Shown here one piece after another: positions 15,318 through 63,664 of a DNA stretch of 64,000 bases. The first letter of the stretch is position 1; each line of letters begins with the position of its first letter. A program made the translations under genes and the position numbers. This stretch comes from Myxococcota bacterium (GTDB taxonomy: Bacteria > Myxococcota_A > UBA9160 > UBA6930): contig OZ245002.1 in assembly GCA_965223415.1 (NCBI GenBank), positions 96,001 to 160,000 of the forward strand, written 5' to 3'. Under the pieces are notes generated by a model. It was not told the origin of the DNA and did not search any database. It was given only the letters and a program-made list of their open reading frames with translations.

Positions 15318-15345
15318 TATCGGCCGGCCGGCGGGCGACCCTTAC
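15318..15345 (-). promoter_or_regulatory. sigma28-like promoter, site A (TPR-DUF4388 operon)
   Basis: GTAAG-N16-GCCGATA. Confidence 0.5.
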
Positions 15346-15431
15346 GCCCTCAGGGCCCTCGCCGGGGCGCCGCCGAGTGGGCGCCCCGGGGGCGATTCGT
15401 CTATGATCCGCCGCCTTCCAGGGAGTGAGCG

Positions 15432-15695
15432 TTGGCGAATCACAAGTCGGCAGAGAAGCGCGCCCGTCAGGCCTTGAAGCGGCGGGACCGCAATCGAGCG
15501 GTTCGCAGCGAGGTCCGCACCAGCGTGAAGGCCGTGCGCCAGGCCGTCGAGGCGGGGGATGCGTCGAACGCCCAGGCCCGCCTTCGCGTGGCGGAGCGCA
15601 CGCTCCGCAAGGCCGCGAGCAAGGGCGTGGTGAAGCGCGAGACCGCCAGCCGCAGCGTGTCGCGGCTGGCCAAGGCGGTGTCCGCCCTCTCCTAG
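15432..15695 (+). CDS. rpsT: 30S ribosomal protein S20
   Basis: MANHKSAEKRARQ...ASKGV...ASRSVSRL; TTG start, GGGAG RBS. Confidence 0.96.
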   Translation: MANHKSAEKRARQALKRRDRNRAVRSEVRTSVKAVRQAVEAGDASNAQARLRVAERTLRKAASKGVVKRETASRSVSRLAKAVSALS

Positions 15696-15710
15696 GCGGC
15701 GTCCCTCTTG

Positions 15711-16727
15711 CTAGGCCGACAGGCCCAGCACCAATCGCTGCATCGCGAGGCCGGCGTCGAGCCCGCCCTGCCCCTTCAGGATCTCGTCCACGTCGTGGAT
15801 GGCCGCGAGGCAGGCGCGCAGCCGCGGCGCCGTGTAGCGGGACGCCTGTCGCTGGATCTTCTTCACGGCGAAGGGGTGACCGCGGAGCTCCTCACCGGCC
15901 CGCGCCCGAACCAGCTTGCGGAAGTGCCCCGCCAGGGAGGCGAGCAGCACCGGCGGCGGCGCCCCGGCTCCCCCCAGGCGGTGGAGCACCGCCAGGGCGT
16001 CCGCCGTGCGGCCTTCGCCGATGGCGTCGGTGAGATCCCAGATCGGATCCTCCGCCCCGCCGCTGGCGGTGCCGAGCACGTGGGCGCGGGTCACGGCCTC
16101 GCCGGGCCCCGCGTAGAGCGCTGCCTTCTCGATCTCGTGGCGGAGCAGGAGGAGCTGGGGCCCGGTCGCCTCCGCCAGGGCCTGGGCCGCGTCGGCGGCG
16201 AGGGCCACGTCCTGGCCCTGGGCTTCTGCGCGGATCCACGCGACCAGGCCCTTCCCTGCCGCCGGCGGCTCGCAGTCGACGACCGCGGAGGGCTCCTGGA
16301 AGGCCTTCACCCAGCGGGAGCGCCGGTCCACCTGGGCGGCAGTCACCACGAGGACCACGTCGTCCCGCTCGGCCAGGCCCGGCACCAGCTCGGCCAGCGT
16401 GTCTCCGAGCCCCTTCCCACGCCGGCCTTCGGGCTCGCGGAGCCAGACCAGGCGTCGGGCCGCCATCACCGGGAGCGAGTCGACCGCGTCGATCAGATCC
16501 GCCGGCTTCGCCGATTCGCCGTCCAGCCGCTCGAAGTTGAAATCGCGGGCCGCCGCGTCCACCGCGGCGTCGCGAAGCGCCGCCAGGGCGTCGTCGCGCA
16601 GCAGCGCCTCGCTGCCCGCGAGCAGGTAGGCGGGCCGCAGGCGCCCTCCGGCGATCTCCTTGCGCAGCGCCGCCACGCCCAGCCCGCCGCCCGACGAGCG
16701 TCGCGAGGCGCGCGCCGGAGGGCTCAA
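15711..16727 (-). CDS. holA: DNA polymerase III delta subunit
   Basis: PAYLLAGSE, FNFERLDG, EIEKAALY, IWDLTDAI; lptE-holA-rpsT synteny. Confidence 0.9.
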   Translation of the reverse strand: MSPPARASRRSSGGGLGVAALRKEIAGGRLRPAYLLAGSEALLRDDALAALRDAAVDAAARDFNFERLDGESAKPADLIDAVDSLPVMAARRLVWLREPEGRRGKGLGDTLAELVPGLAERDDVVLVVTAAQVDRRSRWVKAFQEPSAVVDCEPPAAGKGLVAWIRAEAQGQDVALAADAAQALAEATGPQLLLLRHEIEKAALYAGPGEAVTRAHVLGTASGGAEDPIWDLTDAIGEGRTADALAVLHRLGGAGAPPPVLLASLAGHFRKLVRARAGEELRGHPFAVKKIQRQASRYTAPRLRACLAAIHDVDEILKGQGGLDAGLAMQRLVLGLSA

Positions 16728-17254
16728 GGGCGGATGCGCTCGTAGAGGGCGTCGTGGAGACGCGTCGCAACCGTCCCGGCGAGGCGACGCAGGGCCTCCT
16801 CCCGGTTCGTCCGCGTCACCTCCAGATCGGCGCTCGACAGGTAGATCTCCGACTCGTTGAACGCCCGACCGTCGATCGGCACCGGCGTGCCGTCCTGGCG
16901 GGTCACCTCGAGCTCGAGCCGCAGGCGCAGCTCGTACTCGAGGGCGAACTGGATCGAGGAGAAGCTGCGGCTGCGCGTCTCCAGGCTGTCGATGGCGCCT
17001 CCGACGATCAAGTCCGCCGTCGCCGGGTCGTCCACGATGCGCAGCCCTCCGCGCCGCAGGAACTCCCGGTGCATCGCGTCCTCGAGCAGGGTGTCGATGC
17101 CTGGCTCGAAGGAGTCGTTCACGAGGGGCCGAAGCGCGATCCGACGCGCGTCGCCCACGGGCTCGGCGTAGCGGACGATCTCATAGCCGCACCCCGAAAG
17201 GAGGAGCGCGGCGGCGATCGCGAGCAGAAGGCCGGCGATGGAAGTGCCCCGCAT
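16724..17254 (-). CDS. lptE: LPS assembly lipoprotein LptE
   Basis: LLSGCGY lipobox; upstream of holA. Confidence 0.82.
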   Translation of the reverse strand: MRGTSIAGLLLAIAAALLLSGCGYEIVRYAEPVGDARRIALRPLVNDSFEPGIDTLLEDAMHREFLRRGGLRIVDDPATADLIVGGAIDSLETRSRSFSSIQFALEYELRLRLELEVTRQDGTPVPIDGRAFNESEIYLSSADLEVTRTNREEALRRLAGTVATRLHDALYERIRP

Positions 17255-17319: not shown

Positions 17320-17700
17320 CTAGGACCCGAGCTTCAGCAGCCCCTTCGCGACCTGCAGGACCTGGTTCGCCTGGATCGGCTTGGTCAGGTACTCATCCGC
17401 GCCGAGCGCCAGCGCGCGCTCCCGGTCCTCGTCGGCGCCCTCGGTGGTGATGACCACGATCGGCATCGACTGGAGGCGCTGCTCCTGGCGGATGAGGCTG
17501 ATCAGCTTCAGGCCGTCCATCACAGGCATGTTGATGTCGACGAGCGCCAGGTCGTAGTCGTCGCTGGTCACCTTCCGCAGGCCATCCATCCCGTCCTGGG
17601 CCTCGGTGATGTCGGTGTTGCGCAGCCGCTTCAGCGCAAAGGTGAGCAGCTGTCGCATGGTCGGGCTGTCTTCGACGATCAAGATCCGATGGCGGTTCAT
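17320..17700 (-). CDS. cheY: CheY-like single-domain response regulator
   Basis: ILIVEDS, LVDINMPVMDG, ITTEG, YLTKP; GAGG RBS. Confidence 0.88.
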   Translation of the reverse strand: MNRHRILIVEDSPTMRQLLTFALKRLRNTDITEAQDGMDGLRKVTSDDYDLALVDINMPVMDGLKLISLIRQEQRLQSMPIVVITTEGADEDRERALALGADEYLTKPIQANQVLQVAKGLLKLGS

Positions 17701-17732
17701 GAGGTCCTCCCGCTCGGGCGCACCCGGGCGAG

Positions 17733-17834
17733 CTACTTCGTGAGCAGATCGATGGATCCCGGACGGGGCTTGTTTCGTGAGCAGGTCGATGAATCCCGGA
17801 CGGGGCCTATTTCGTGAGCAGGTCGATGAATCCC
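17733..17834. repeat. 37-bp tandem repeat, about 2.8 copies, derived from the 3' end of the GAF gene
   Basis: ctacttcgtgagcagatcgatggatcccggacggggc / ttgtttcgtgagcaggtcgatgaatcccggacggggc / ctatttcgtgagcaggtcgatgaatccc. Confidence 0.93.
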
Positions 17835-18616
17835 TGGATGGTGTTGAGCTTGCGCTCCGACTGGGCGAACAGCTGGGCCGCGAAGATGGCGGTGGCCGCG
17901 TGGCCCGCCAACAGGGTGAACAGCTCGTGGTCGAGGGGACTGAACTCGTCCTTCTGGGAGAGCAGCTTGAAGATCGCGATCGCCCCGATCGCGCGGTCCT
18001 CCACCCGCAGCGGGATCGAGACGAGCGGCGCGGCCCAGTCCACCGGCCCATCGCGATTCGCGCAGGCGGTCTCACCGTCGGCCACCGAGCTTCCGACCAC
18101 ACCCTGGCCGAGCGGCACCGCCGGCACCCGGGCGAGCTCGGCGCCCTCCGAGGCCACGGGCTCGAGGGAGCCGCTCTTCTCGTCGAGCACGTAGACCGCG
18201 AACACCTCGGCCCCGATCAGGTTGATCACGATCTCGATGATGATCTTGAAGACCTCGGAGAGGTCGAGGGTCGAGTGGAGCTGGTAGCTCGCGACGTAGA
18301 GGTTCGCGAGGGCGTTGTTCTCCTCCTCGATCTCGAGATAACGGTTGGCGAACTGGCGGTTCTCCTCTTCGAGGGCTTCGAGGCGGGCGATCGCGTCCTG
18401 GTTCTCGCTCTCGAGGCCCTCGATCCGCTCGAGGAGCTGCTCGCGCAGCTTCGACCACTCGCCGGTGTCCTGGGCGGCGTCCTGCTGGCGTGACTCCACG
18501 TTGACCAGGCGCTCGCGCAGCCGCTTGTTCTGGTCGACCAGCTCCCGTGTGAACTCCGCACCGCGGCGGAACAGGTTCAAGACCTCGTCGGCGCGCTCGA
18601 AGACGTCGTTGCTCAC
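17807..18616 (-). CDS. Coiled-coil plus GAF domain protein of the Che cluster
   Basis: EEENNALANLYVASYQLHSTLD, VSIPLRVEDRAIGAI, LAGHAATAI. Confidence 0.82.
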   Translation of the reverse strand: MSNDVFERADEVLNLFRRGAEFTRELVDQNKRLRERLVNVESRQQDAAQDTGEWSKLREQLLERIEGLESENQDAIARLEALEEENRQFANRYLEIEEENNALANLYVASYQLHSTLDLSEVFKIIIEIVINLIGAEVFAVYVLDEKSGSLEPVASEGAELARVPAVPLGQGVVGSSVADGETACANRDGPVDWAAPLVSIPLRVEDRAIGAIAIFKLLSQKDEFSPLDHELFTLLAGHAATAIFAAQLFAQSERKLNTIQGFIDLLTK

Positions 18617-18626
18617 GGCCGTCTCC

Positions 18627-19688
18627 TCACGGCTGGATCCCGCCGAGCTGGATCAAGGCCGGGATCTCCCCGAGCGGCGCCACCGTGTCGGCCGCGCCGG
18701 CCCGGATCACCTGCTTCGGCATGCCGAAGATCACCGCGGTCTCCTCCGACTCCGCGATCACCTGGCCGCCGGCCTCTCGGATGGCCAGGGCGCCGCGGCG
18801 CCCGTCGTCGCCCATGCCGGTCAGGACCACGCCGAGCACGTCCGCGCCGAAGTGTTTGGCGGCGGAGACGAACATGCGATCGACGGCAGGCGCGTACTTG
18901 TCGCTCGGCTGAGCGGGCGAGATCAACGCGTGGGGGATCCCGCCGCGACTCTCGAACTCCAGGTGACATCCGCCGGGAGCGATCAGCACCGTGCCTTCCT
19001 CCACCGTGCAGCCCGTCTCCGCCTCCCGGGCACGAAGCGCGGTGAGGCGGTCGAGGCGGGACGCGAAGCTCTGGGTAAAGCCCTTCGGCATGTGCTGGGA
19101 AACGATGAAGCCAAACGGGGGCGGCTCGGTGAAGGCGCCGAAGAGCTGGGTCAGCGCCGCCGGGCCTCCGGTGGACGAGCCGATCGCTACCACCCCCGGG
19201 GCCCCTTCGGGGCGGGGGGTCGGCGGCTGCTGGGGAAGGGGCGGCACCGCGGCCGCCGCGATGCGCTCCCGGACCTTGTCGATGCGCAGCTGGCGGATCG
19301 CGTGGACCTTGCGAATCAGCTCCCGCTCGATCCCCTGGAGCTCCGGCCCTGCCCGCAGGCTGGGCTTGGCCACGAAGTCGACGGCGCCGAGGTCCAGGGC
19401 CCGGAACACGTCCTGATCCCCGGAACGACCGCTGACCACCATGACCGGAGTGGGCTTCTTCGCCATCAGGATGCGCAGGAAGGTGAAGCCGTCCATGCGC
19501 GGCATCTCGAGGTCGAGGGTGATGAGGTCGACGTCGCTCTCGAGGGCGGTGCGCAGCGCCTCTTCGCCGTCCCGGGCCCAGGCGACCACCTCGATCAGCG
19601 GCGACCCGTCGAGCATCCGCACCAGGGTCCGGCGGGTGAAGGCGGAGTCGTCGATGACGAGCACCCGAATGCGATCGGCGGGCTTCAC
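18627..19688 (-). CDS. cheB: Chemotaxis methylesterase/response regulator CheB
   Basis: REC domain plus GSSTGGP, QHMP, LTGMGDDG, FGMP. GTG start overlaps the cheR stop. Confidence 0.95.
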   Translation of the reverse strand: MKPADRIRVLVIDDSAFTRRTLVRMLDGSPLIEVVAWARDGEEALRTALESDVDLITLDLEMPRMDGFTFLRILMAKKPTPVMVVSGRSGDQDVFRALDLGAVDFVAKPSLRAGPELQGIERELIRKVHAIRQLRIDKVRERIAAAAVPPLPQQPPTPRPEGAPGVVAIGSSTGGPAALTQLFGAFTEPPPFGFIVSQHMPKGFTQSFASRLDRLTALRAREAETGCTVEEGTVLIAPGGCHLEFESRGGIPHALISPAQPSDKYAPAVDRMFVSAAKHFGADVLGVVLTGMGDDGRRGALAIREAGGQVIAESEETAVIFGMPKQVIRAGAADTVAPLGEIPALIQLGGIQP

Positions 19689-20611
19689 CGGGACGCGCCC
19701 TCCGGGTCGACGGGAGATGCGGCGGCGCGGGCGGCCGCGTGCCAGGGATCGAGCACCTCCTCGCCGGGGAGGGGGCGGCGATAGACCATCTCGCTCTTCA
19801 GGTGGGAGAGGTTGAAGGCGCTCGACACGTTGATCAGCGATTCCGCGTGACCGAGCAACAGGTAGCCGCCGGGCTGGAGCTTGTCGTGAAAGCACCCGAT
19901 GACCTCGCGCTTGGTCTCGAGGTCGAAGTAGATGATCACGTTGCGGCAGAGGATCGCGTCCATCGTCCCGAGCAGCCCCACGCGGGAGGGATCCAGCAGG
20001 TTGACGCGGGTGAAGACCACGTGGCGCTTGATCTCGTCGGAGATCTTCCAGAGATTGTCCTGCTCGGTGAAGTACTTCTTGCGCAGGGGATCCGGGGTCT
20101 CGCGGAACGAGGCCGCGCGGTAGATGCCGTGGCGGGCCTTCTGGAGGACCGCGCCGGAGATGTCGGAGGCGTAGACCCGGAAGTCCCGCCCGGGCTCCAG
20201 ACCGGCCTCCTTGGCGAGCATGACGATCGAGTAGGGCTCCTCTCCACTCGAGCACCCCGCCGACCAGATGCTGAGGGCCCGGCCGCCCCGCCTCCGCCGA
20301 CGCTCGAGGCACTCGGGGATGATCTCGTGGACGAGCGCATCGAGCTGCCCTCGCTCGCGGAAGAAGTACGTCTCGTTGGTGGTAAGCAGGTCGATGGCGC
20401 GACCCATCTCTTCTTCGCCGTGGCCCGCCCTGCGCAGCAGGAAGTGGTAGGCGGAGAAGCTGCCGAGATCGAGCTCCGCGATCCGACGGGCGAGGCGCTT
20501 CTCGAGGAGGAAGCGCGAATCGTCGCCGAAGTGCAAGCCGCAGTGCTTCCGGAAGAGGTCCCGGAACATGCGGAACTGGGCGTCGGTCAGCTGGGGTTCG
20601 CGCGGGTCCAC
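19685..20611 (-). CDS. cheR: Chemotaxis methyltransferase CheR
   Basis: TTNETYFFRE, IWSAGCSSGEEPYS, CRNVIIYF, LGHAESL. Confidence 0.96.
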   Translation of the reverse strand: MDPREPQLTDAQFRMFRDLFRKHCGLHFGDDSRFLLEKRLARRIAELDLGSFSAYHFLLRRAGHGEEEMGRAIDLLTTNETYFFRERGQLDALVHEIIPECLERRRRRGGRALSIWSAGCSSGEEPYSIVMLAKEAGLEPGRDFRVYASDISGAVLQKARHGIYRAASFRETPDPLRKKYFTEQDNLWKISDEIKRHVVFTRVNLLDPSRVGLLGTMDAILCRNVIIYFDLETKREVIGCFHDKLQPGGYLLLGHAESLINVSSAFNLSHLKSEMVYRRPLPGEEVLDPWHAAARAAASPVDPEGASR

Positions 20612-20614
20612 GAG

Positions 20615-22687
20615 CTACTCGAGCCGGTCCAGTGCGGTGAGGATCGAGTCGCGAACGAACTCGTCGGTCTCGGACTCCAGGCGGCGGAGAATGGCCGGAA
20701 CCGCGGTGCCGTAGCGCCGCTCGGCCAGCACGTCCACGGCCTGGGCCCGGACGCTCCAGTGGGCGTGACCGAGGCAAGGCAAGAGCTGGTCCAGGGCTTC
20801 CGCCTCGGCGTGGCGACCGACGCAGGCCACCGCGGCCTCCGCTAGCTCGGGATCGTCGGCCCCGAGCAGCGACGCGGCGAGGCTCGCGGCCCGGCGGCCC
20901 CCAATACCGTCGAGCGCCTCGAGACCCGCCATCGCCGGCGTGCCGCCCCGGGGCAGCGCCCCGGCGACCAGCTCCAGGACCCGCTCGCGAGAGCCCTCGT
21001 CCCCGTGCTCCGCGCACCAGCGGGCCAGGGCTGCGAGCGCGGCCGCCCGGGCGCGCTCGTCCGGGTCGTCGGTGAGATGGGCCAGGTCGGAGACCACCGA
21101 CGGATCCGGCGACGCGGCCAGGGCCCGGGCGGCACCGATGCGCACGGAGAGGTCTTCGTCGGCCAGGGCCATGCGCAGGGTCTCGAGAGGCGGCTCGTCC
21201 GTCACCGCAGCCGTGCCCTCTACCGCGGCGCGGCGGACGGCCGGCGACGGGTCCCGGGCCAGGCGGGTCAGGAGCTCCAACTCGCCGCGCCCGCCGATCG
21301 CCGAAACGACCCGGGTCGCGACCACCCGCAGAGCCTCGAGCTCGTCGGCCAGCACCGCGACCAGGGCGTCGATCACGGGGCTTGGGTGCTCGGCGCCGAT
21401 CGCCTCCAGGGCGGACGCGGAGGCGTCGACCTCGTCACTGCGCCACTCGCCCCCCTCCCGAGCTGCAGCCGAGAGCAGGCTGACCAGCGCCGCGACCGGC
21501 TCCAGGGTGCCGTGCTCGCCGAGCGCCTGGGCGGCGCTCGCTCGCACCTCGTGGTCCGGGTCGGCCAGGGCGCGCAGGAGCAGCCCGCGGCCCTCGGCGA
21601 CCGGCGTCTCGCCCAGCATGCGGCACGCCATGCGGCGCTCGACCGGCGAGAGGTCGTCGAAGACCGCGTCCACTGGCTGCACGGCGGCGGCGCCCACCTG
21701 GCCCAGGGCGGCGAACACCACTTCGGTCAGCGCCTCGTCGCAGGCGGCACCGAGCAGGGGAACCACCGCCTCGGCGTGGCCCAGCAGCCCGAGCAGCTGC
21801 ACGGCGGCGAGCCGCACCGGAAGGTCCCCTTCGCGAAGTCGCTCGACGGCGAAGGCGAAGGGCGCGCTCTCGGGCCCGATCGCCTGGCTCACCTCGCCGG
21901 CGATCGCCTCGCCGTCCACCCCTGGCCGCGCGCAGATCCGCACGAGGCCCTGGAGCGCGGCCTCGCGGGCCGACCGTCCTCCGATCTCCAGACCCTTCAG
22001 CAGGGCGCGGGAGGAAGCGACGTCGTCGTTGTGGCTGAGCACCGCGTAGGCGGCCGCGCGAAGTAGCGCGTCGTCCAGGATCGCGCCGAGAGCGTCGAGG
22101 GGCGCACCGACCTGGAGACGGTCCAGGGCGCGCAGGGCCGACAGCCGAACGAGCACCTCCGGATCGTCGGTGAGGAGGCCGAGCAGCGCGTCGCAGCAGC
22201 GGTCGTCGCCGACGCAGCCCAGCGCCTCGGCGCCGGCGCCGCGAACGTTGGGATCGGGATCGGCGATCACCTCCATGAGTCGGGGTACGGCGGCCGGGTC
22301 GCCGATGCCCGCCAGAGCGTCCACCGCCTGCTTGCGCACGTCCGCGTCGGGATCCCCCGACGCCTCGAACAGGACCGGCAGCGCCGAGGATCCGCAGCGG
22401 GTCAGGGTCTCGAGCGCGGCGTTGCGGCGCCCGGAGTTCTCGCCGTCGGCCAGGGCCCCGACCAGGGCCGGGAGCGCTCCGGAGGTCTCCGGGGCGGCGG
22501 AGAGCCTCTCGATGGCCGCCTTGCGCACCCGCCAGCTCGGATCGGCCAGCTGCTCGATGAGAGCCGGGATCGCCTCGCTCGCCGGGAGCGTGGTGAGGCG
22601 TTCCACGGCGAGACGGCGCACCTCCTCGTCGGAGTGCGACAGTTCGGCCAGCAGCTGATCGGGTCGTTCTCGGTCCACGTGGCTCAC
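20615..22687 (-). CDS. HEAT/PBS-lyase repeat protein
   Basis: Repeated D.D..VR..A..AL motifs. Confidence 0.88.
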   Translation of the reverse strand: MSHVDRERPDQLLAELSHSDEEVRRLAVERLTTLPASEAIPALIEQLADPSWRVRKAAIERLSAAPETSGALPALVGALADGENSGRRNAALETLTRCGSSALPVLFEASGDPDADVRKQAVDALAGIGDPAAVPRLMEVIADPDPNVRGAGAEALGCVGDDRCCDALLGLLTDDPEVLVRLSALRALDRLQVGAPLDALGAILDDALLRAAAYAVLSHNDDVASSRALLKGLEIGGRSAREAALQGLVRICARPGVDGEAIAGEVSQAIGPESAPFAFAVERLREGDLPVRLAAVQLLGLLGHAEAVVPLLGAACDEALTEVVFAALGQVGAAAVQPVDAVFDDLSPVERRMACRMLGETPVAEGRGLLLRALADPDHEVRASAAQALGEHGTLEPVAALVSLLSAAAREGGEWRSDEVDASASALEAIGAEHPSPVIDALVAVLADELEALRVVATRVVSAIGGRGELELLTRLARDPSPAVRRAAVEGTAAVTDEPPLETLRMALADEDLSVRIGAARALAASPDPSVVSDLAHLTDDPDERARAAALAALARWCAEHGDEGSRERVLELVAGALPRGGTPAMAGLEALDGIGGRRAASLAASLLGADDPELAEAAVACVGRHAEAEALDQLLPCLGHAHWSVRAQAVDVLAERRYGTAVPAILRRLESETDEFVRDSILTALDRLE

Positions 22688-23826
22688 TGCATGCCGCGCG
22701 CGCGCGCCACGCGCAGCAGCTCCTCCATCAGCAGGTCGGCGTCTCCCCGCACCGCGGCATCGATGCGCTGCTCGAACAGCCCGCGGCCCTCGTTGAGCTC
22801 CTCCGCCATCGCCTGGGCGACGTCTCCTGCCTGCACGGCGGCCGCGAACTTCTCCTCGTTGTAGAGCACGATGTCCGAGACGATGATGCGCGCGAGGCGC
22901 TCGGCCTGGGCCCTCCCCTCGCTGGCAACCGGCGATGCGGCCGGGGACGGAGCGGCCGGGGACGGCGGTGCCGCCGGTGCCGAAGCGACCGGGGACCGCG
23001 GCGCGGCCGCAGTCGGGGACAACGGCGCGGCCGGGGCCGGGGAGGCCCCGGCCGACGCCTCGCGGGCTGCGGGGGCATCCGGCGGCGGCACCTCGCGAGC
23101 GCGAGGCGCATCCCGCGGCGGATCGGGCGGTGCCGCGGCTTCTGACGGCTCCGGCGGTGCGGCCGCCGGGCGCGGCGCCGGACCGAGGAGGCCCATCTCC
23201 TCCAACAGCGGCATCAGGGCCTCGGGCAGGTCGGGCACCTCGAGGTAGGCATCCGCCCCGTACAGCTCCGTGGGCGAGCGCCGGTAGCGGTCCGGGTGGT
23301 GGACGGCCCCCGCCAGCACCACACGGGTTCCGCGCAGGCTCTCGTTGCGCTTGACGATCTCGCAGATCTGGAATCCGAACATCTTCGGCAGGTCCGCGGC
23401 CAGCACCACGGCGGTGGGCCGCTGTCGCTGGATCTCGAGCATCGCGTCAACGCCGTCGAAGACCACCGCCGGACGCAGCCCGCGCTCCACGAGCGCAGCG
23501 GCCGTGCGCTTCGCGAGCTCCGCATCCGGCATGGCGACGATCACCTGGGCGGGCGCGGACTCGTCGTTTTCGTGCGCGGGCCCGCGCTCGGCGGAGCGGC
23601 CCTCGCTCGCCGCCGCGGAAGGCGCGGCCCGGCTCGCCTGGGGTGCGGGCTGGGTCGGCTCCGCCGCCGGGGGCGCGACCTTCGGAGCCGCGGCCACCGC
23701 CGGGGACGGCGCGCGCACGCGGAAGACGGACTGGCATCGGGAGCAGCGCAGACGAGCGCCGCCCTCGCCGAGCTTCTCCCGGTCGATGCGGTAGCGGGCT
23801 GCGCATTTCGGACACGCCGCGATCAT
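22684..23826 (-). CDS. Zinc-ribbon plus degenerate receiver domain protein
   Basis: CPKC...RCSRCQSVF; REC-like VLAADLPKMFG; Pro/Ala linker; C-terminal ERLARIIVSDIVLYN. Confidence 0.8.
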   Translation of the reverse strand: MIAACPKCAARYRIDREKLGEGGARLRCSRCQSVFRVRAPSPAVAAAPKVAPPAAEPTQPAPQASRAAPSAAASEGRSAERGPAHENDESAPAQVIVAMPDAELAKRTAAALVERGLRPAVVFDGVDAMLEIQRQRPTAVVLAADLPKMFGFQICEIVKRNESLRGTRVVLAGAVHHPDRYRRSPTELYGADAYLEVPDLPEALMPLLEEMGLLGPAPRPAAAPPEPSEAAAPPDPPRDAPRAREVPPPDAPAAREASAGASPAPAAPLSPTAAAPRSPVASAPAAPPSPAAPSPAASPVASEGRAQAERLARIIVSDIVLYNEEKFAAAVQAGDVAQAMAEELNEGRGLFEQRIDAAVRGDADLLMEELLRVARARGMQ

Positions 23827-23842
23827 GTTGTTCTCCTGCCCT

Positions 23843-26422
23843 TCATTGGATGCGGAACCTCTGGACGTCGTCCCGCAGGACGGACGCCTGTTCGCTCAGC
23901 TGCCGCGTCGCACCGCCGAGGCGGCGAGACGATTCCTCGTTCGAGCGGGTGCGCTCGAAGACCTGCTCCAGGAACGACACGGTCGCCCGACACGCCTCGG
24001 TCTGCTCCTGCAGGCCAGCGTGGATCTGGTCCACCGCCTCGCGAATGCTCTCCATGCTCTGCCGGACCCGGCCTGCGCCCCGTGACTGCTCTTCGGTCGT
24101 GCGCTGGGTCTGTTGGGCGACGTCGCGGGTGACGTGGGCGCCGCGCATCAACACCTCGTTGCCGCGCTCCTGCTCCCGACCGGCACTGCGGATCTCCTCG
24201 ACCTCGGCGTTCACCCGCTCCATCAGGCCGGCCACGTGGCGCGCGGCGCCGGCCTGCTCCCGGACCGCGTGCACGATCTCGTCGATGCGGCCGCCGGAAT
24301 CCCGGGCCGCGCCAGTGATCTCCTCCAGGGCGAGACCGGCCTCCGCGGCCAGCTGCACGCCGCTCTGGACCCGCTCGCCACCGCGGGAAATCGCATCGGT
24401 GGCGTTGGCCGTCTCGTCCTGGACGGCGCGAATCAGCGAGCCGATCTCCTTCGTGCTCGTCAGCACCCTGTCGGCGAGGTCCTTGATCTCGTCTGCGACG
24501 ACGGAGAACGAGCGTCCCTGGTCTCCCGCCTGGGCGGCGATGATCGCCGCGTTCAGCGCCAGGAGGTTCGTCTCGTCGGCCACGTCGTCGATCACGTCGA
24601 CGATCGCGCCGATCTCCGCCATGCGCCCCGCGAGGCTGCGGATCACCCCGTCGGCGGATTCGGTCGCGTCGCGAATGGCGTCCATGCCGCTGATCGTCTC
24701 GTGGACACGCTCCTGCCCGCGTTCGGAGAGCTTCACCACCTGGGCCGAGAGGAGCGCTGTCTGGGAGGCGTTCCCGTCGACGTCGCCCATGGCCGTCGCC
24801 ATCTCGGACATCGAGCTCGCCGTCTCGGAGACCGCCTGGGCCAGGCCTTCCGTGTTATTCGAGACCTGCCCGACGCTGCGGATCATCTGCTCGATCGAAC
24901 CGCTCACCTCCTCGACGTGGCTGCTGAGCGTGGTGGCGGTCTGGTTCAGCTCCTCGCTGGCGGCGCCGAGCTCGAGGATCGAGCTGCTCGCTTCCTCGAC
25001 GTTGGCGTTCAGGGCCTGAGCACTCTCGGCGATCTCGGAGACCTTGTGATTGACCGCGGCGACCTGGGCCGTCGCCTGCTCGATACCAGCGCGCTGATCC
25101 TCGGTGGCATGGGTCACCGCCTCGCCGACGGAGCCCACGTCGCCGGCGGCCCGATCGAGACCGTCGGTCGCGTTGGCCACCCGGCCGATCATCTCGCGTA
25201 GCGACGCCACCATGCGGTCGAAGGAGCGAGCCAGCGCGCCGATCTCGTCCTCGGACTCGACCACCACCTGGGTGAGGAAGTCCCCCTCGGAGACGCGCTC
25301 GGCCTGGGCGATCACCTGTGCCGTGGTCGTGCTCACGTCGCGGGCGATGAGCCGGCAGGTGACGAGAATGACGACCAGGGCCACGAGCATCAGCAGGCCG
25401 AAGGCGACCCGGGAGCTCCGCTGGCCCGCGGTGAAGGCCGTGCCCGGGGTCGAGGCGACCAGCAGCCGGCGTCCTTCCGGGTCCAGGGCCTGCCACGCGA
25501 AGCTGTGGTGGGAATCGAATCCCGTGCTGTCGCCGCGGGTTGCCACCCCGGGCCCCGCCAGCCAGCGCAGCTCGGTCGGCTGGAGGCCGTCGGACGGCCC
25601 GTCCACGATCTCGCCACGCTCCCGGTCCACGATCACGAGGTTCTCCGCCGCGGCGAAGGCCGCGCCGTTCTCGCGAAGCCGGGTCATCGCCCTCGCGTCG
25701 GTGGCGAGCTGGTCCACGGCGTAGGCCAGGTAGGCCTGCTTGACACGGACGTCCTGGGCCTCGACCGGACGCCCGGCCAGCACGTAGGAGAGCAGCAGCG
25801 CGAAGACCAGAGCGACCACCGAGACCGCCAGCATCGGCGCCGCCAGCTTCGTCGCGAGGGACACCCGCGGCATGAGCTCCGCGCGGAGCGCCCCATCGGA
25901 GAGCCGCTGGGCCCAGCGGTCGACCAGGGGAGCGATCATCCGCTTGATGGTGAAGTGCACGAAGACACAGGCGACGACCCCGCCGCTGAGGGCCGCCGCG
26001 ACGACGACCGCAGCGGAGAAGAGGGAGAGCGATTCGAGGGTCAGGGCCATGTAGGCGGTCACGAAGACGGCGGCGCCGGCCCAGGCCAGCATCGAGTCGC
26101 GAACGTCGCGGTAGGGCAGGCGCACCAGCCGCTGGAAGGCCAGCTCCAGGTCGACGCGGCCGAGCTCTCCCGCGGCGTCGGCGTCGATGACGTCGAGGAT
26201 CGGGCGCGCGAACACGCGCTGGCTCCCCTGCATCGCGAAGGTCAGTCCGATCGCGGCCAGGCCCACGCCCACTCCGAAGGCCGACCACTGCTCGGAAGTC
26301 AGGTTGAGAATCGTCGCCAGGTACGCGACGCACAGCATCGCGCCGGGGATCCCGATGAGCGACCAGAGGAGCGTGTGGCGCAAGTGAAAGGACTTGCCGC
26401 TCGCGAATACGGGCGCACTCAT
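23843..26422 (-). CDS. Methyl-accepting chemotaxis protein with long signalling domain
   Basis: TM helices, HAMP (SEDEIGALARSFDRM), ADETNLLALNAAIIAAQAGDQGRSFSVVADEI. Confidence 0.95.
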   Translation of the reverse strand: MSAPVFASGKSFHLRHTLLWSLIGIPGAMLCVAYLATILNLTSEQWSAFGVGVGLAAIGLTFAMQGSQRVFARPILDVIDADAAGELGRVDLELAFQRLVRLPYRDVRDSMLAWAGAAVFVTAYMALTLESLSLFSAAVVVAAALSGGVVACVFVHFTIKRMIAPLVDRWAQRLSDGALRAELMPRVSLATKLAAPMLAVSVVALVFALLLSYVLAGRPVEAQDVRVKQAYLAYAVDQLATDARAMTRLRENGAAFAAAENLVIVDRERGEIVDGPSDGLQPTELRWLAGPGVATRGDSTGFDSHHSFAWQALDPEGRRLLVASTPGTAFTAGQRSSRVAFGLLMLVALVVILVTCRLIARDVSTTTAQVIAQAERVSEGDFLTQVVVESEDEIGALARSFDRMVASLREMIGRVANATDGLDRAAGDVGSVGEAVTHATEDQRAGIEQATAQVAAVNHKVSEIAESAQALNANVEEASSSILELGAASEELNQTATTLSSHVEEVSGSIEQMIRSVGQVSNNTEGLAQAVSETASSMSEMATAMGDVDGNASQTALLSAQVVKLSERGQERVHETISGMDAIRDATESADGVIRSLAGRMAEIGAIVDVIDDVADETNLLALNAAIIAAQAGDQGRSFSVVADEIKDLADRVLTSTKEIGSLIRAVQDETANATDAISRGGERVQSGVQLAAEAGLALEEITGAARDSGGRIDEIVHAVREQAGAARHVAGLMERVNAEVEEIRSAGREQERGNEVLMRGAHVTRDVAQQTQRTTEEQSRGAGRVRQSMESIREAVDQIHAGLQEQTEACRATVSFLEQVFERTRSNEESSRRLGGATRQLSEQASVLRDDVQRFRIQ

Positions 26423-26913
26423 GAGGCGGGCTCCTCCACGATGAGCGGGCTCGAGCGGTAGACGCTTTCCAGGATGTGCTCCAGGGAGAGCACCATCACC
26501 GGCGGGGCTCCCTCGCGGCGCACCACGGCCCGCACCGCGTCGTATCCAGAGTGGGTGGCCAGGGCCGGAGGCTCCTCGACGGAGGCGGCGCTGGCCGAGA
26601 AGACGTCGACGGCTGCGTCCACACGCAAGCCGAAGACGAGCTCGTCGATCTCGACCACGGCGATCCTGGCCGCGTCGCCGCTCGCTGCGCGCCCGCGCGA
26701 GAGCGCCCGGCCCAGGTCGACGACCGGAATCACCTTGCCCCGGAGGTCGATCACGCCCTCGATCAGCTCCGGCGCCTTGGGAAGGGGCGTCACTTCCTGG
26801 CTGCGGACGATCTCGCGGATCTGCAGCACGTCGACGCCGTACAGCTGATCGGCGATCTCGAAGCAGGCCAGCTCCACCTGCGCCTCGTGGGTCGTGAGAG
26901 CATTAGTCGCCAA
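26419..26913 (-). CDS. cheW: CheW coupling protein
   Basis: YGVDVLQIREIV, TPLPKAP, GVIDLRGKVIPVVDL; probable TTG start 26913. Confidence 0.9.
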   Translation of the reverse strand: MATNALTTHEAQVELACFEIADQLYGVDVLQIREIVRSQEVTPLPKAPELIEGVIDLRGKVIPVVDLGRALSRGRAASGDAARIAVVEIDELVFGLRVDAAVDVFSASAASVEEPPALATHSGYDAVRAVVRREGAPPVMVLSLEHILESVYRSSPLIVEEPAS

Positions 26914-27403
26914 CGTCCAACACCTTCTCCAGGTCGAGCAGGGACACGAAGTCTCCGCCTTCCTCACACAACTCGGACACGAACTCGGACTCGCCGCTCG
27001 GGGCTCCGCGAAAGGAGTCGTCGGGCACGCGCAGCACGGAGGTGACCGTGTCCACCAGGAGGCCGGCCGCCTCGTCCTCGCCGCCGCGTAGGACGATGAT
27101 CCGCGAGGTACGCTTGGGCTCACTGGGAGCGCCGCCGAGACGAAGGGACAGATCCATCACCTGCACGATCTCGCCGCGCAGGGAGATGACGCCCATGATC
27201 TCCCGCGGGACGCGGGGCACCGGCGTGATGGGGCGAAGCCGGACGATCTCGCGCACGCGTTCGACGGGCAAGGCGTAGCGCTCGCCGCCGAGACGAAAGG
27301 TGAGCAGGTCCTGCAGGACGACGCTCTCGGCGTCCTCGGCGGCGGCCGCCGCTGCGCGGGCGAGCAGGTCCCACGAGCCACCCTGGGCCACGCTGCTGCT
27401 CAT
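26903..27403 (-). CDS. cheW: CheW coupling protein
   Basis: YALPVERVREIV, TPVPRVP, GVISLRGEIV. Confidence 0.92.
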   Translation of the reverse strand: MSSSVAQGGSWDLLARAAAAAAEDAESVVLQDLLTFRLGGERYALPVERVREIVRLRPITPVPRVPREIMGVISLRGEIVQVMDLSLRLGGAPSEPKRTSRIIVLRGGEDEAAGLLVDTVTSVLRVPDDSFRGAPSGESEFVSELCEEGGDFVSLLDLEKVLDVGD

Positions 27404-29481
27404 GCTTCACTCCTGCGGCCGACGTCCTCGACCAGGGCGGAGACGTCGAGCACCAGTACGGCGCCCTGGTCGCCGAGCTCCGTCGCCCCCGCGATTCCGC
27501 GAACGCTTCGCACCGGGCCCTGGATCGGCTTGATGACCGTGTCCTGCTGTCCCTCGAGCCGGTCCACGAGGAGGCCCATGCGCGCATCGCCCATGCCGAG
27601 CACCACCACGTACACCTTGCCGACGCTGGCGTCCTCGGAGAGGGCGAACTCGCGACCCAGCCGCCGAAGGGCCAGGGGCTCGCCGCGGAGGTTCAGGATC
27701 TCGTGGCCTTCGCTGCTCTGGATCTCGGCGGGATCCACGAGCAGGGTCTCCCGCACGGAGTTGAGCGGAACCGCGAAGCGGTGCCCGCCGACGCCGACCA
27801 CCAACGCCTGGATGATCGCGAGGGTGATCGGGAGGGTGATCGTGAAGGTCGTCCCCTCGCCCGGTCGCGACTCCACGTCGACGACCCCGCCGAGGGACGC
27901 GATGTTCGAGCGCACGACGTCCATGCCGACGCCTCGGCCGCTCGTCTCGGTCACGGCGCCGCGGGTCGAGAGGCCCGGGTGGAAGATCAGCTCGAGGGTC
28001 TCGCGCTCGGGCGGATACTCACCGCGGCGCACCAGGCCCTGCTCCCGGGCGCGGTCGAGGACGCTCTCGGTATCGATGCCCCGCCCGTCGTCGGAGACGG
28101 CGATCACCACGTCGTTGCCGCGCTGACTCGCCTCGAGGCGGATCGTGCCGAGCGCCTCCTTGCCAGCGGCCACCCGCTCGGATGCGGGCTCGATCGCGTG
28201 GTCGAAGGCATTCCTCACCAGGTGCATCAGCGGGTCGACCAGCTCCTCGACGATCAGCTTGTCGAGCTCGGTATCGGCGCCGCGGACCTCCAGGGACACC
28301 TCCTTGCGCAGATCGAGACGCAGCCGCCTCACGACGCGTGCGAGCTTGTCGAAGACCTGGCGCAGCGGGACCATCCGCACCTCGAGCACGCCGGCTTGCA
28401 GCTCCTCGAGCTTGCGCTCGAGGCCGCGGTGGATCTTGCCGAGCTCGGCGCCGGCGCGGGCCGTCTCGGGATCGCTCGACAGGCCCTCGACGAGTCGCTT
28501 CACGGCGCCCTTGTGCAGCGCGAGCTCCCCGACCAGGTTCATCAGCTCGTCGAGCTTGCGGATGTCGACCCGCACGGTGCCGCTGATCGACTTGAGCGAG
28601 GCGGGCTCGGCGGGAGCGGCGCCCTCCCGTTGCAGCGGGCCGGCGATCCGCTCCGGCTCGACCCGCGGCGCCGCGGCGCCGGCGGCCCCGGGCTCCGCCC
28701 CGCCGCCCCGGGGCGCATGGCCGATCTCCACGGCCTCGGCCGGCAGATCGAGCCGCGCGGCCAGATCGGCGGCAGGAAGATCGGTTCCGGTGAGCAGGGA
28801 GAAACGGATCTGGGAGTCCGGCGTCTCGCCGGGAGAGGGCAGCGTCGAGAGAACCTCGCCCACCTCCTTGATCGCCGCCGTCACCTCCGCGAGACCTTCT
28901 TCGAAGTGGCTGATCTCGAAATCGACGTCGACGACGTAGATGCCGCGGCCGCGCTGCAGGTTGTCGTGGAGGCGGTGCTCCTCGTACTCGGTGAGCGCCC
29001 GGAGGATCGCCGGCGCCAGCTGGAGCTCGCCCGGGTCGGTCTCGTCGGCTGCGGCATCGTCGCCACTCCAGCCCTCGATGCGCTCGAGGAGGCCCGCGAT
29101 CCGCTCGCGGGTCGCGGCTCCGATCTCGCGATCCTGGAGCTCGGCCAGGGCCTCGGCGATCACGCCGATCGCATCGTCGAACAGCGCCAGTCCGTCGGCC
29201 CCGAGGCGGATGCGTCCCATGCGCAGCCCGTCGAGCAGGTCCTCGAGGCGGTGGGCCAGCTCGCCCATGCTCTCGAGACCGAACATCCCCGACAGGCCCT
29301 TCAGCGAGTGGGCGGAGCGAAACAGGCGGTGGATCAGGTCCGGGTCGGGCTCGGCGCGGGTCTCGACGGCCTCGGCCAGCTCCGAGAGATCGTCCCGCAT
29401 GCGCTCGAGGATGTCCTCGGCCTCGGAGACGAACTCCCGCTGGGCCTTGGAGCCCGCTCCCCCCTTTCCCGATGCGGCCAC
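27400..29481 (-). CDS. cheA: Chemotaxis histidine kinase CheA
   Basis: FRSAHSLKG, VRVDIRKLDELMNLVGEL, HLVRNAFDH, DDGRG, SGRGVGMDVV, C-terminal CheW domain. Confidence 0.97.
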   Translation of the reverse strand: MAASGKGGAGSKAQREFVSEAEDILERMRDDLSELAEAVETRAEPDPDLIHRLFRSAHSLKGLSGMFGLESMGELAHRLEDLLDGLRMGRIRLGADGLALFDDAIGVIAEALAELQDREIGAATRERIAGLLERIEGWSGDDAAADETDPGELQLAPAILRALTEYEEHRLHDNLQRGRGIYVVDVDFEISHFEEGLAEVTAAIKEVGEVLSTLPSPGETPDSQIRFSLLTGTDLPAADLAARLDLPAEAVEIGHAPRGGGAEPGAAGAAAPRVEPERIAGPLQREGAAPAEPASLKSISGTVRVDIRKLDELMNLVGELALHKGAVKRLVEGLSSDPETARAGAELGKIHRGLERKLEELQAGVLEVRMVPLRQVFDKLARVVRRLRLDLRKEVSLEVRGADTELDKLIVEELVDPLMHLVRNAFDHAIEPASERVAAGKEALGTIRLEASQRGNDVVIAVSDDGRGIDTESVLDRAREQGLVRRGEYPPERETLELIFHPGLSTRGAVTETSGRGVGMDVVRSNIASLGGVVDVESRPGEGTTFTITLPITLAIIQALVVGVGGHRFAVPLNSVRETLLVDPAEIQSSEGHEILNLRGEPLALRRLGREFALSEDASVGKVYVVVLGMGDARMGLLVDRLEGQQDTVIKPIQGPVRSVRGIAGATELGDQGAVLVLDVSALVEDVGRRSEA

Positions 29482-29487
29482 GGAGCG

Positions 29488-29915: not shown

Positions 29916-29943
29916 CATCGGCGACGGCAGGGGATTTCTTGAG
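29916..29943 (-). promoter_or_regulatory. sigma28-like promoter, site B (cheY-cheA operon)
   Basis: CTCAAG-N15-GCCGATG. Confidence 0.62.
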
Positions 29944-31711: not shown

Positions 31712-31738
31712 CATCGGCCGACCCGGAGGGGACTTGAA
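31712..31738 (-). promoter_or_regulatory. sigma28-like promoter, site C (head of the Che cluster)
   Basis: TTCAAG-N14-GCCGATG. Confidence 0.62.
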
Positions 31739-44828: not shown

Positions 44829-44855
44829 CATCGGCGGGCCGCGACCGGCCTTGAG
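44829..44855 (-). promoter_or_regulatory. sigma28-like promoter, site E
   Basis: CTCAAG-N14-GCCGATG. Confidence 0.62.
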
Positions 44856-46986: not shown

Positions 46987-47014
46987 GATCGGCCTCCCGC
47001 CCCTTCGAGTTGAA
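46987..47014 (-). promoter_or_regulatory. sigma28-like promoter, site F
   Basis: TTCAAC-N15-GCCGATC. Confidence 0.55.
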
Positions 47015-50579: not shown

Positions 50580-50606
50580 TATCGGCCAGGCACGGCGCCT
50601 GCTGAA
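50580..50606 (-). promoter_or_regulatory. sigma28-like promoter, site G (pilGHID)
   Basis: TTCAG-N15-GCCGATA. Confidence 0.55.
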
Positions 50607-52127: not shown

Positions 52128-52144
52128 AGCAACCGCCGTGCCAA
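52128..52144 (-). promoter_or_regulatory. sigma54 -24/-12 promoter of the major pilin
   Basis: TTGGCACGGCGGTTGCT, consensus TGGCACG-N4-TTGC. Confidence 0.88.
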
Positions 52145-52243
52145 GCGCTCCGGCGTACGTCACGGATCGGCAGCTCGCGGCGCAACCTGTAGGCGTGAAG
52201 CCTCGAGCGGGCCGCGCGACCCCTTCAACTCGGGTGTTCACTG

Positions 52244-54796: not shown

Positions 54797-54829
54797 GGCG
54801 AGACGAGATCCGGTGCGGTGGGAGCGCGC

Positions 54830-55594: not shown

Positions 55595-55611
55595 AGCAAA
55601 CCCCGTGCCAC
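55595..55611 (-). promoter_or_regulatory. sigma54 -24/-12 promoter of the ECF pair
   Basis: GTGGCACGGGGTTTGCT. Confidence 0.85.
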
Positions 55612-61994: not shown

Positions 61995-62767
61995 GGTCCG
62001 CTCGGCTTGGAGGCCGCGGACGCCGTCAGATACTCGAGAGCCAGCTCCCGGTCCCCAGTCGCGATGTAGATCTCGGCGATCCGGAAGTTCGCCTCCGCCT
62101 CCGCGAGCGGTCCCGGGTCGAGCTCCACGACCCGTTCGAAGCGCGCGATCGCCTTCTCGTGACGGCCGCGCTCGGCTTCGATGATGCCGAGGTTGAGAAT
62201 CGGACGCCAGTAGCCGGTGTGGTACTCCGTCGCCATCTCCAGGGACTCCATGGCCCGTCGCAGCTGACCGAGCTTGTAGTAGGCCCAGCCCTGATTCGTG
62301 AGCGCCGCCCACGGAAGCGGGAAGGTCGGGTCGTTCACCAGGGACTCGGCCATGTGAATGGCCTCGCCGTAGCGCTCGAGCTCGATGTAGATCGCGGAAA
62401 GGGTGAGCTTGGCCTGCTGGAAGTTCGGAGCCTCGGCCAGGGCCTTCAGGAGGTGGCGCTCGGCGTCGGCGAACAGCCCCTTGCGGCGGTAGGAGTCGGC
62501 GAGGGCGAGCTGGGTCCACTTGTCCTCGGGCCGCAGCTCCTCCGCGATGCGGAGCTCGCGGATCGCGAGGGCCACCCGACCCTCGCGCAGGTGGCCGGTG
62601 CCGACGTTGTAGTGGGAGGCCGCGCGCCGCTCGATCTTCATCTTCTCGGCGAGCTTCGTGTCGGCACGGCTCGAGCGGGAGCCGCCGGGGGTCGCGCACC
62701 CCACGAGGAGCACCAGGGCGACCAGGCTCAGCACGCGGAAGTGGGAGCTTCGAGGGTTCGTCGTCAC
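61952..62767 (-). CDS. Tgl/PilF/PilW-like TPR lipoprotein (secretin pilotin)
   Basis: LVGC lipobox, TPRs, NDPTFPLPWAALTNQGWAY; GTG start after AAGGAG. Confidence 0.78.
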   Translation of the reverse strand: MTTNPRSSHFRVLSLVALVLLVGCATPGGSRSSRADTKLAEKMKIERRAASHYNVGTGHLREGRVALAIRELRIAEELRPEDKWTQLALADSYRRKGLFADAERHLLKALAEAPNFQQAKLTLSAIYIELERYGEAIHMAESLVNDPTFPLPWAALTNQGWAYYKLGQLRRAMESLEMATEYHTGYWRPILNLGIIEAERGRHEKAIARFERVVELDPGPLAEAEANFRIAEIYIATGDRELALEYLTASAASKPSGPWGKRSEEYLDRLR

Positions 62768-62780
62768 GGGATCGTCTCCT

Positions 62781-63629
62781 TCAGAAGGAAGAGAGGATGC
62801 GGGCCAGCCAGTCACGGCGTTCTTCGTCGCTCACGGGCTTTCGTTTCTTGACCAGGCGCAGCTTGCCAAGGGCCGCCTTGCCCAGCCGGCGGCGGGTGCG
62901 TTGACGCCGCTCGCCCTCGGGCATCGGGTCGGCAGCTGCGAAGGCTTCGCTCGGTGCCGGCAGGTCGAACTCGAGATCGGCATCCGCCTCGAGGGGCGGA
63001 TCGGCCTCGCCGAGCGGTGTCGCGCCCGCGGGAGGGCCGATGCGGAACTTGCTCAGCTCGGTCGCCGGCGGGGAAGGAGCCTCGCCCTCCGGAGCACCGG
63101 CGGGCTCCGCGGCGGCCAGGGCATCCTCCACCAACGAGGTGAGCTGGGAGGTATCCGGCGGCTCGATCTCCGGCTCGGGGACCACCGCCTCGACCAGCAG
63201 GAACTCGTCCTGGATCTTGTCGGTGCCGGCGTCGTCCGCAGGCGCAGGCTCGCTGGGCGGCGGTGCCAGGTCTCCCATCAGCTCGGCCCAGATACCGTAG
63301 GCGCGCTCGGCGTCGCCGGCCGCGAGCTCGTCGTCGTCGAACAGGAAGCCCATGCCCTCGCCGAAGGCCATCGCCGCGTCGACGCAGCTCGCGGCGTCCG
63401 GCACGTCACCGTCGGGAGCGAAGTGCAGCACCTGGCCGCTCTTGAGGGAGCGCACGCTCAGGGTGACGTCGAGGGGGCCGTCGAGGACGGCGTGGACGAC
63501 GAGCGCCGCCCGGGCCGGAGCCACGGGGAAGTCCTCGGTGCGAACCACCGGTGTGTTGAGGGAGAGCTGCAGGCTCCGCAGGTGCTCGGGGCGCAGCTGG
63601 AGCGGCGCGTTGCGGCGCGCGAAGAACAT
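62781..63629 (-). CDS. Conserved hypothetical protein upstream of the tgl-like gene
   Basis: SLNTP, FGEGMGFLFDD, C-terminal LARILSSF. Confidence 0.7.
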   Translation of the reverse strand: MFFARRNAPLQLRPEHLRSLQLSLNTPVVRTEDFPVAPARAALVVHAVLDGPLDVTLSVRSLKSGQVLHFAPDGDVPDAASCVDAAMAFGEGMGFLFDDDELAAGDAERAYGIWAELMGDLAPPPSEPAPADDAGTDKIQDEFLLVEAVVPEPEIEPPDTSQLTSLVEDALAAAEPAGAPEGEAPSPPATELSKFRIGPPAGATPLGEADPPLEADADLEFDLPAPSEAFAAADPMPEGERRQRTRRRLGKAALGKLRLVKKRKPVSDEERRDWLARILSSF

Positions 63630-63635
63630 GCCCTG

Positions 63636-63664
63636 CTATCGGTCCCCGCCGAGCCCCACTTGAG
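63636..63664 (-). promoter_or_regulatory. sigma28-like promoter, site H (tgl-like operon), probably leaderless
   Basis: CTCAAG-N15-ACCGATAG, 6 nt before the ATG. Confidence 0.6.

Follow-up and report, generated by a model that had tools for sequence, protein, structure and literature searches.

A FliA/WhiG-type promoter motif heads a predicted pilus, polarity and signalling regulon in an uncultured myxococcotal lineage

The window analysed here, a 64,000-nucleotide stretch of DNA from a Myxococcota bacterium, corresponds to positions 96001-160000 of C1, the single 5.83-Mb contig of the source genome (G000; 71% GC, 97% complete). The original prediction, made from the sequence alone, proposed that a promoter motif resembling that of the flagellar sigma factor FliA (sigma28) joins pilus, chemosensory and uncharacterised genes of the window into one regulon. 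The eight sequences it listed are all present on the minus strand, the coordinate first given to each lying 1-2 nt past the final T of CCGAT. Scored with a matrix trained solely on motif sites outside the window, seven of them reach 14.2-20.8 bits, and the pilG site only 10.3 bits; the window’s eight matches of at least 13 bits are these seven intergenic sites and one inside a gene (58100). The features are as follows.

12382..15242, minus strand: unannotated gene 13488-15242 and DUF4388 gene 12382-13491, from gene calls and Pfam/NCBIfam searches
15319..15344, minus strand: FliA-type site TAAGG-N15-GCCGAT, 14.2 bits, preceding the unannotated 584-aa gene and the DUF4388 gene
17320..29871, minus strand: chemosensory cluster, by Pfam cheY, cheA, two cheW, MCP, zinc-ribbon, HEAT, cheR, cheB, GAF and a second receiver
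29917..29942, minus strand: FliA-type site TCAAG-N15-GCCGAT, 19.6 bits, 45 nt before cheY
31713..31737, minus strand: FliA-type site TCAAG-N14-GCCGAT, 17.2 bits, with the DUF4388 head gene (30024-31619) starting 93 nt further on
42240..42265, minus strand: FliA-type site, 17.6 bits; the ATG of sulfatase-TPR gene 40131-42230 follows after 9 nt, and the predicted transcript is leaderless
44830..44854, minus strand: FliA-type site (N14), 17.7 bits, 16 nt before sulfatase-TPR gene 43164-44813
46988..47013, minus strand: FliA-type site, 14.2 bits, before sulfatase-TPR gene 44872-46947, whose start may be the ATG at 46977, about 10 nt away
50581..50605, minus strand: weak, doubtful site TCAGC-N14-GCCGAT, 10.3 bits, before the pilG-like/ABC/pilD operon 47027-50546
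52129..52143, minus strand: sigma54 box TGGCAC-N5-TTGC, 103 nt before pilA (51462-52025)
52166..52191, minus strand: degenerate FliA-type site TACAG-N15-GCCGAT, 9.6 bits, upstream of pilA and absent from the original prediction
55596..55610, minus strand: sigma54 box with no FliA site, before ECF sigma gene 54830-55528, kept in 10/11 relatives
63638..63663, minus strand: FliA-type site TCAAG-N15-ACCGAT, 20.8 bits; the ATG of gene 62781-63629 follows after 8 nt, again with a predicted leaderless transcript

Pfam bears out the labels first given to the Che genes, the sulfatase-TPR genes, the prepilin peptidase and two pilins. The gene following the first site had been labelled TPR-DUF4388. DUF4388 belongs to the next gene, and the TPR label is unsupported, since gene 13488-15242 has no Pfam match at E 1e-4 and no NCBIfam match at 1e-8. 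Family profile searches likewise found no match for the ‘pilG’ gene or for gene 62781-63629, which opens the tgl-like operon, upstream of a Tgl-like TPR gene whose score of 90 bits falls below the cut-off of 225.

The motif is real, and it is enriched before genes, as predicted. The non-circular test used the window-derived pattern TCAA[GC]-N15-[GA]CCGAT, which has 40 matches outside the window, 32 of them intergenic against an intergenic share of 9.6% by our own gene calls, and 30 having a same-strand start no more than 200 nt away. Spacers of 9-13 and 17-22 nt gave only 0-2 intergenic matches each outside the window, with 3/11 at N14 and 4/16 at N16. Intergenic matrix matches of at least 15 bits across the genome, a partly circular count, number 135 at spacer 15, 25 at spacer 14, 10 at spacer 16 and 3-11 at each other spacer, and the genome consensus is TCAAG-N15-(G/T/A)CCGA(T/A). 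The places said to be free of the motif are indeed free of it, with -4.1 bits before the bamA-like g76, 2.7 before the rpsT-like, -0.5 before the recO-like and 0.2 before the yceD-like gene (names assigned from N-termini), and 0.8 and 1.0 bits upstream of the tRNAs.

The matches also behave as promoters should, having a T(C/A)AAG -35 element, a GCCGAT -10 element, a 15-nt spacer and an orientation upstream of genes, as sigma28 promoters do. Almost all intergenic matches (141/150) face a same-strand start within 250 nt. After removal of duplicates (195 to 184 matches), an ATG follows CCGAT at a distance of exactly 9 nt in 26 of them, against a mean of 2.0 at distances of 15-60 nt (Poisson P 3e-20), and a Shine-Dalgarno word precedes only 9 of the 55 genes with leaders of at most 12 nt, versus 53 of the 81 with longer leaders. 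Because the ATG peaks at 9 nt and short-leader genes mostly lack this word, we infer that the short-leader targets produce leaderless transcripts, which would mark the transcription start 9 nt past CCGAT, rather than the 6-8 nt originally expected. For two Bdellovibrio promoters of FliA mapped in the supplement of PMC3627812, +1 likewise lies nine bases after CCGA(T/A).

Another ATG peak, 33 nt away, comes from an 11-copy repeated gene (G000:C1:242742 and 10 other places). In each copy an outward-pointing 18-bit match lies some 110 nt short of the 3′ end; it was left out of the promoter count and could be either a mobile promoter or chance. We take the gene to be transposase-like.

Conservation before orthologues, the check originally proposed, was scored at 10 bits or more unless stated, with related genomes being non-independent samples. 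The pilB site is found in 30/30 relatives, mostly as TAAAG-N15-GCCGATAA, with none in the controls; the cheY site is found in 18/19, against 0/19 for the shifted-spacer control; and sites precede the RomR-like and PP2C-like genes beside fliA in 68/69 and 65/69 loci, respectively. The site at 31713 is kept before the DUF4388 head gene in 8/11 syntenic relatives, and that at 63638 before the opening gene of the tgl-like operon in 7/7 (17.0-21.8 bits), while five control genes gave 0/44 in syntenic relatives at the same threshold. At 15319, the sole near-full N-terminal match in relatives scores 15.2 bits, and three other comparisons have uncertain starts. The three sulfatase-TPR paralogues (40131-46947) each have their own site, and have homologues in only 5/11 syntenic relatives; the paralogues are inseparable there, with 3-4 of the 5 scoring at least 13 bits. 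The predicted pilG promoter is doubtful, being weak in the window and kept in just 3/11 syntenic relatives, a comparison that replaced an earlier wide-window pilH test (7/26). Genome-wide, spacer 15 outnumbers spacer 18 in 28/30 relatives, only slightly in four of them, and in 13/14 relatives without flagellin; N18 served as the control in place of a reversed pattern, judged too weak owing to codon bias.

As the prediction required, the genome encodes a FliA/WhiG sigma factor, and only one (G000:C1:4603455-4604222). It is the sole match above the TIGR02479 cut-off in G000 (278.9 versus 189.6 bits; next best 115.7), and scores 252.5 bits against the NF005413 cut-off of 201. Of the 29 sigma70 region-2 matches in G000, the other long sigma factors are RpoD, three RpoD-like proteins and RpoH. 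The best match in the PDB is Streptomyces WhiG (238.6 bits), ahead of Escherichia coli FliA (190.9 bits). In an alignment with 6pmi_F, E. coli residues R74, A78, D81, R84 and R91 of regions 2.4/3.0 are all identical; these are presumably the residues that read GCCGAT, although we found no paper confirming it.

The gene lies at 4.60 Mb, 2.4 Mb from the flagellar cluster at 2.11-2.16 Mb, where its neighbours are a gene for a sigma54 activator and two others, PP2C-like and RomR-like, the last two being our assignments from N-termini, with Pfam giving only a receiver domain for the RomR-like protein. Comparison of the closest 80 FliA loci, mostly from metagenome-assembled genomes, found this neighbourhood kept in 69-75, FliA itself 80-95% identical, and no flagellar structural gene in any. 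A sigma54 box precedes fliA in 55/79 loci, and a FliA site of at least 13 bits stands before it in none of the 79; rpoN is present in G000. The gene was found in 116/121 genomes of the class, to which our claims are limited; at phylum level, FliA was found in 16/50 genomes with at most 53% identity, and a pattern scan of 25 genomes without a spacer control was uninformative. Back-to-back FliA sites at G000:C1:4602268 and 4602412 serve the RomR-like gene and the PP2C-like gene converging on fliA, and the latter gene may thus exert feedback on FliA.

The usual partners of the sigma factor were sought in the same genome. No PF04316 match exceeds the cut-off for FlgM, the anti-sigma factor, in G000, where a very divergent copy is possible; a FlgM profile built from the sister order (f10) found no match either (best E 0.051), and a hidden flgM between fliA and the PP2C-like gene was looked for and is not there. 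FlgM-family genes occur in 0/29 genomes of this order versus 11/11 of the sister order, three of which lack flagellin. In all seven examined f10 loci holding both, the FlgM-family gene lies directly behind the romR-linked fliA, and several flgM upstream regions show, by eye, TAAAG/TCAAG-N14/15-(G/A/C)CCGAT. Because the motif thus precedes flgM behind fliA, it is tied to FliA better than by likeness alone. For RsiG, PF22802 gave no match in G000 at E 0.1, a search of uncertain sensitivity, as 0/14 control genomes pass its cut-off.

The f10 FlgM-family proteins (L168-L177) are about 65-80 aa long, seemingly comprising only the sigma-binding C-terminal part, and persist in genomes without flagellin, where any removal of them would have to do without export. 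Flagellated f10 genomes (L149, L150, L153, L155, L157, L161) also carry a second fliA paralogue, with 63-69% identity, and two fliA matches occur in 5/8 flagellated f10 genomes versus 0/10 without flagellin. In the relatives examined for this, no flagellar genes lie within about 5 kb of the second copy.

At a threshold of 13 bits, and with one gene entered by hand since its start was miscalled, the predicted regulon has 170 direct targets, or 286 genes with operon extension. Sites stand at the head of pilB-pilT-pilC, an operon that also encodes a kinase and a sigma54 activator (by position PilS/PilR), and of a cluster of minor pilins, the pilM operon, another two pilT genes, the MSHA operon and its pilin, an mglB-like operon and the RomR-like gene. 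PilB, PilT, PilM and MshL pass their family cut-offs, PilC and MglB fall short, and the mglA-like gene gave no match at the thresholds used. Among the 286 of 5353 genes, PilZ proteins are strongly enriched (14/26, p 6e-12), as are receiver domains (23/70), PilB/PilT-type ATPases (7/9), CheW (3/4) and MCP (3/4); of the sulfatases, 4/22 are included, and lipoproteins are not significantly enriched (15/181, p 0.09), all families other than PilZ being undercounts from our own profiles. Twenty randomly chosen direct targets comprised two GGDEF, one EAL, one Ser/Thr kinase, three two-component and six other proteins, and seven without a Pfam match, making seven signalling proteins and no pilus part. 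Ten hand-picked targets include FtsH, CarB, pyruvate dehydrogenase E1, MreB, Hsp70, a phosphoribosyltransferase and Fe-S proteins. Therefore the regulon is signalling-rich and broad, and the motif does not assign unknown genes to motility or surface functions, as had been proposed. Equally, the view of FliA as a controller of pilus accessory functions was too narrow, as its roughly 170 predicted promoters include those of the core machine (pilBTC, pilM), of the mglB-like and RomR-like genes, and of ftsH, carB and mreB.

Recurrent among the direct targets, and often leaderless, are membrane proteins of about 245 aa with similar N-termini (G000:C1:1043611, 2328546, 3372482, 5207465 and 2674248), two of which were searched against Pfam without a match.

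The original prediction set pilus accessory functions under FliA against filament subunits under sigma54, the reverse of the usual hierarchy, and this is partly right. Pilus and chemosensory operons are headed by FliA sites, and the G000 flagellin has a sigma54 box and a FliA matrix score of 0.3 bits; flgB, flgF and two other flagellar-region genes similarly have sigma54 boxes and no FliA site. All 23 flagellated genomes of families f1, f4, f5 and f9 have sigma54 flagellin, with boxes before 36/40 genes and FliA sites of at least 10 bits before 0/40. The pilin, however, is not under sigma54 alone: pilA has a sigma54 box in 10/10 relatives and an upstream FliA-type site in 7/10 (14.5-19.8 bits), in addition to the 9.6-bit site in G000, and the pilin of the MSHA cluster is a direct target. 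Flagellin was found in 33/80 genomes, and not in the single-contig genome G092. In f10, 8/8 flagellated genomes have TAAAG/TTAAG-type flagellin sites (8.9-15.7 bits) and no sigma54 box.

The word TGAAAC(G/A)CG is shared upstream of the G000 flagellin, flgB, flgF and the two other flagellar-region genes (G000:C1:2114500-2153800, L035 area), once as a near-palindrome, and TGAAAC or its complement lies upstream of 8/26 flagellin genes of the sigma54 families in relatives. It is a candidate binding site for the flagellar sigma54 activator.

We therefore consider it very probable that the motif is the promoter of the genome’s single FliA/WhiG sigma, controlling some 170 promoters in a pilus, polarity and signalling programme uncoupled from flagellar assembly. 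Firstly, sigma54 would transcribe fliA from the box seen before it. Secondly, FliA holoenzyme would bind T(C/A)AAG-N15-GCCGAT and start 9 nt downstream at about 170 promoters, with around a third of transcripts leaderless, as the motif, spacing, orientation and conservation suggest. Thirdly, this would produce a programme of surface behaviour and signalling, comprising the type IVa pilus motor and assembly, MSHA pili, MglB/MglA/RomR-like polarity, the Che cluster, PilZ, GGDEF/EAL and receiver proteins, and some core genes. Fourthly, the sigma54 activator of the pilBTC operon would drive pilA from its sigma54 box, with the FliA site as a second input. Flagellin and flagellar operons would depend on sigma54 alone, and it is because of this, and because FlgM was not found, that FliA appears uncoupled from flagellar assembly. 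Hence the protein is a FliA-family member, and its predicted regulon is not the classical flagellar one.

Several observations weigh against this interpretation. The evidence behind the regulon is computational throughout, and the link between sigma factor and motif relies on likeness and co-conservation. The genes were called with our own self-trained hexamer caller, so that starts and operons are approximate. In five of the 121 genomes fliA was not found, and the four of these that were tested still carry the pattern. The excess of spacer 15 over spacer 18 is small or absent in 6/30 relatives (73/65 in G001, 54/49 in G015, 108/87 in G029, 20/16 in G049, 56/56 in G006 and 63/67 in G021). Two small genes inside the flagellar region are themselves targets. 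Flagellin has FliA-type sites in f7 and mixed ones in f8, and a one-gene PilB tree nests both families inside the order, so that one clean and early hand-over of flagellin to sigma54 is not supported.

A more ambitious evolutionary version is, to our minds, evenly balanced between right and wrong. Class-wide, FliA may be a conserved and possibly essential master regulator of type IVa motility and Mgl/RomR polarity, relocated to the side of romR, with the FlgM checkpoint lost in one order and flagellin handed to sigma54, and with pili governed by a flagellum-like cascade from sigma54 through FliA to PilR-sigma54 for the pilin, under a new anti-sigma factor or other control. The short FlgM proteins of f10 genomes without flagellin would then represent a living intermediate.

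The most durable alternative, which we regard as plausible though somewhat short of an even chance, overlaps with our interpretation and differs in emphasis: FliA may serve a whole life stage, much as the attack-phase regulator of Bdellovibrio does, with pili as only one output and the motif marking expression in that stage rather than a motility gene. The core-gene targets (FtsH, carbamoyl-phosphate synthase, pyruvate dehydrogenase E1, MreB, Hsp70), the lack of a pilus part among the random twenty and the strong conservation of FliA all suit it, as does the report of a lethal fliA knockout in Bdellovibrio (PMC5430801), yet the strongest enrichments and the best-conserved of the tested sites belong to pilus, polarity and c-di-GMP genes. 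That another sigma factor, whether an RpoD-like paralogue, RpoH or an ECF sigma, reads the motif while FliA does something else is unlikely. There are many region-2 proteins to choose from, the -35 element is here mostly TCAAG rather than TAAAG, and 170 promoters are many for a sigma28. Nevertheless, the motif fits the WhiG consensus XT(C/A)AX / GCCGA as printed in PMC13595943 and the Bdellovibrio TTAAG-N16-CCGATA; the relatives’ pilB sites are mostly TAAAG-N15-GCCGATAA; in the sister order it stands before both flgM and flagellin; and a conserved FliA would be left without candidate targets. Still less probable is that the element is a transcription-factor operator: it is non-palindromic, its spacing and orientation are fixed, and ATG codons peak at precisely 9 nt downstream. 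That the matches arose by chance in a genome of 71% GC is refuted for the motif as a whole, the pilG site alone excepted: GCCGAT is common, with 23 loose matches in the window, the pilG site and the pilA site of G000 reach no more than about 10 bits and an 18-bit match belongs to the 11-copy repeat, but neither the held-out intergenic matches nor conservation with null controls can be reconciled with chance.

The regulon we favour, that of a FliA uncoupled from the flagellum, differs from each of its closest counterparts. The enteric FliA-FlgM class 3 regulon has the same promoter consensus and spacing, whereas here FlgM was not found, flagellin is not a target and fliA lies outside the flagellar cluster. 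Myxococcus xanthus SigF is reportedly an alternative sigma tied to pilus motility, if not necessarily a FliA orthologue. The Bdellovibrio genes Bd2761 and Bd3734 presumably encode RomR and MglA. These two are growth-phase genes, and the only ‘pil’ row in the start-site table of PMC3627812 is an Flp gene. Bdellovibrio bacteriovorus FliA has a large non-flagellar attack-phase regulon, with 92/140 mapped promoters (PMC3627812, PMC5430801), a nearly identical motif and start position, and Tad/Flp (type IVb) pilin genes among its targets. It still drives flagellin (Bd0606), with pilA described there as not FliA-regulated, whereas in the present genome sigma54 serves flagellin, and the motif is found at genes for the type IVa motor and for polarity. 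The actinobacterial WhiG1/WhiG2 proteins are described as a sigma28 kept without flagella, with predicted c-di-GMP, chemotaxis and type IV pilus targets (PMC13595943, PMC7005675) and the same T(C/A)A -35 element; WhiG2, however, is held by RsiG, which has no match here, and in flagellated actinobacteria the sites lie in the flagellar cluster, whereas here flagellar operons are not headed by them. Geobacter, according to PMC2725144 and PMC2577667, has sigma54 boxes before the fliA operon and pilA, with PilR as activator, but its fliA belongs to a flagellar operon, and a sigma28 site is predicted for fliC. Synechocystis SigF is described as another alternative sigma tied to pilus motility (PMC2532724), and likewise not necessarily a FliA orthologue.

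A repurposed sigma28 is therefore an idea already in print. Literature searches, which excluded subscription journals, turned up no account of such a regulon for this class, nor any sigma28 link to the type IVa pilus motor or to Mgl/RomR genes. If correct, our interpretation would show a flagellar sigma swapping organelles across a class, with graded states visible among its genomes (FlgM retained or not detected; flagellin under sigma28, under sigma54 or under both), and would name a transcriptional controller of the type IVa pilus motor and Mgl/RomR polarity genes. For a lineage not yet in culture it predicts some 170 start sites and 55 leaderless genes, and the regulon is testable with reporters in E. 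coli, as was done for Bdellovibrio.

Two minor observations concern other loci. The 102-aa gene at G000:C1:2144478-2144786, inside the flagellar region and antisense to it, has a 21.5-bit FliA site; by eye it resembles the N-terminus of a rod protein, with no family match. In the window, two tandem ECF sigma genes occupy 54002-55528, the upstream one, with the sigma54 box, lying just beyond pilA and tRNA-Glu.

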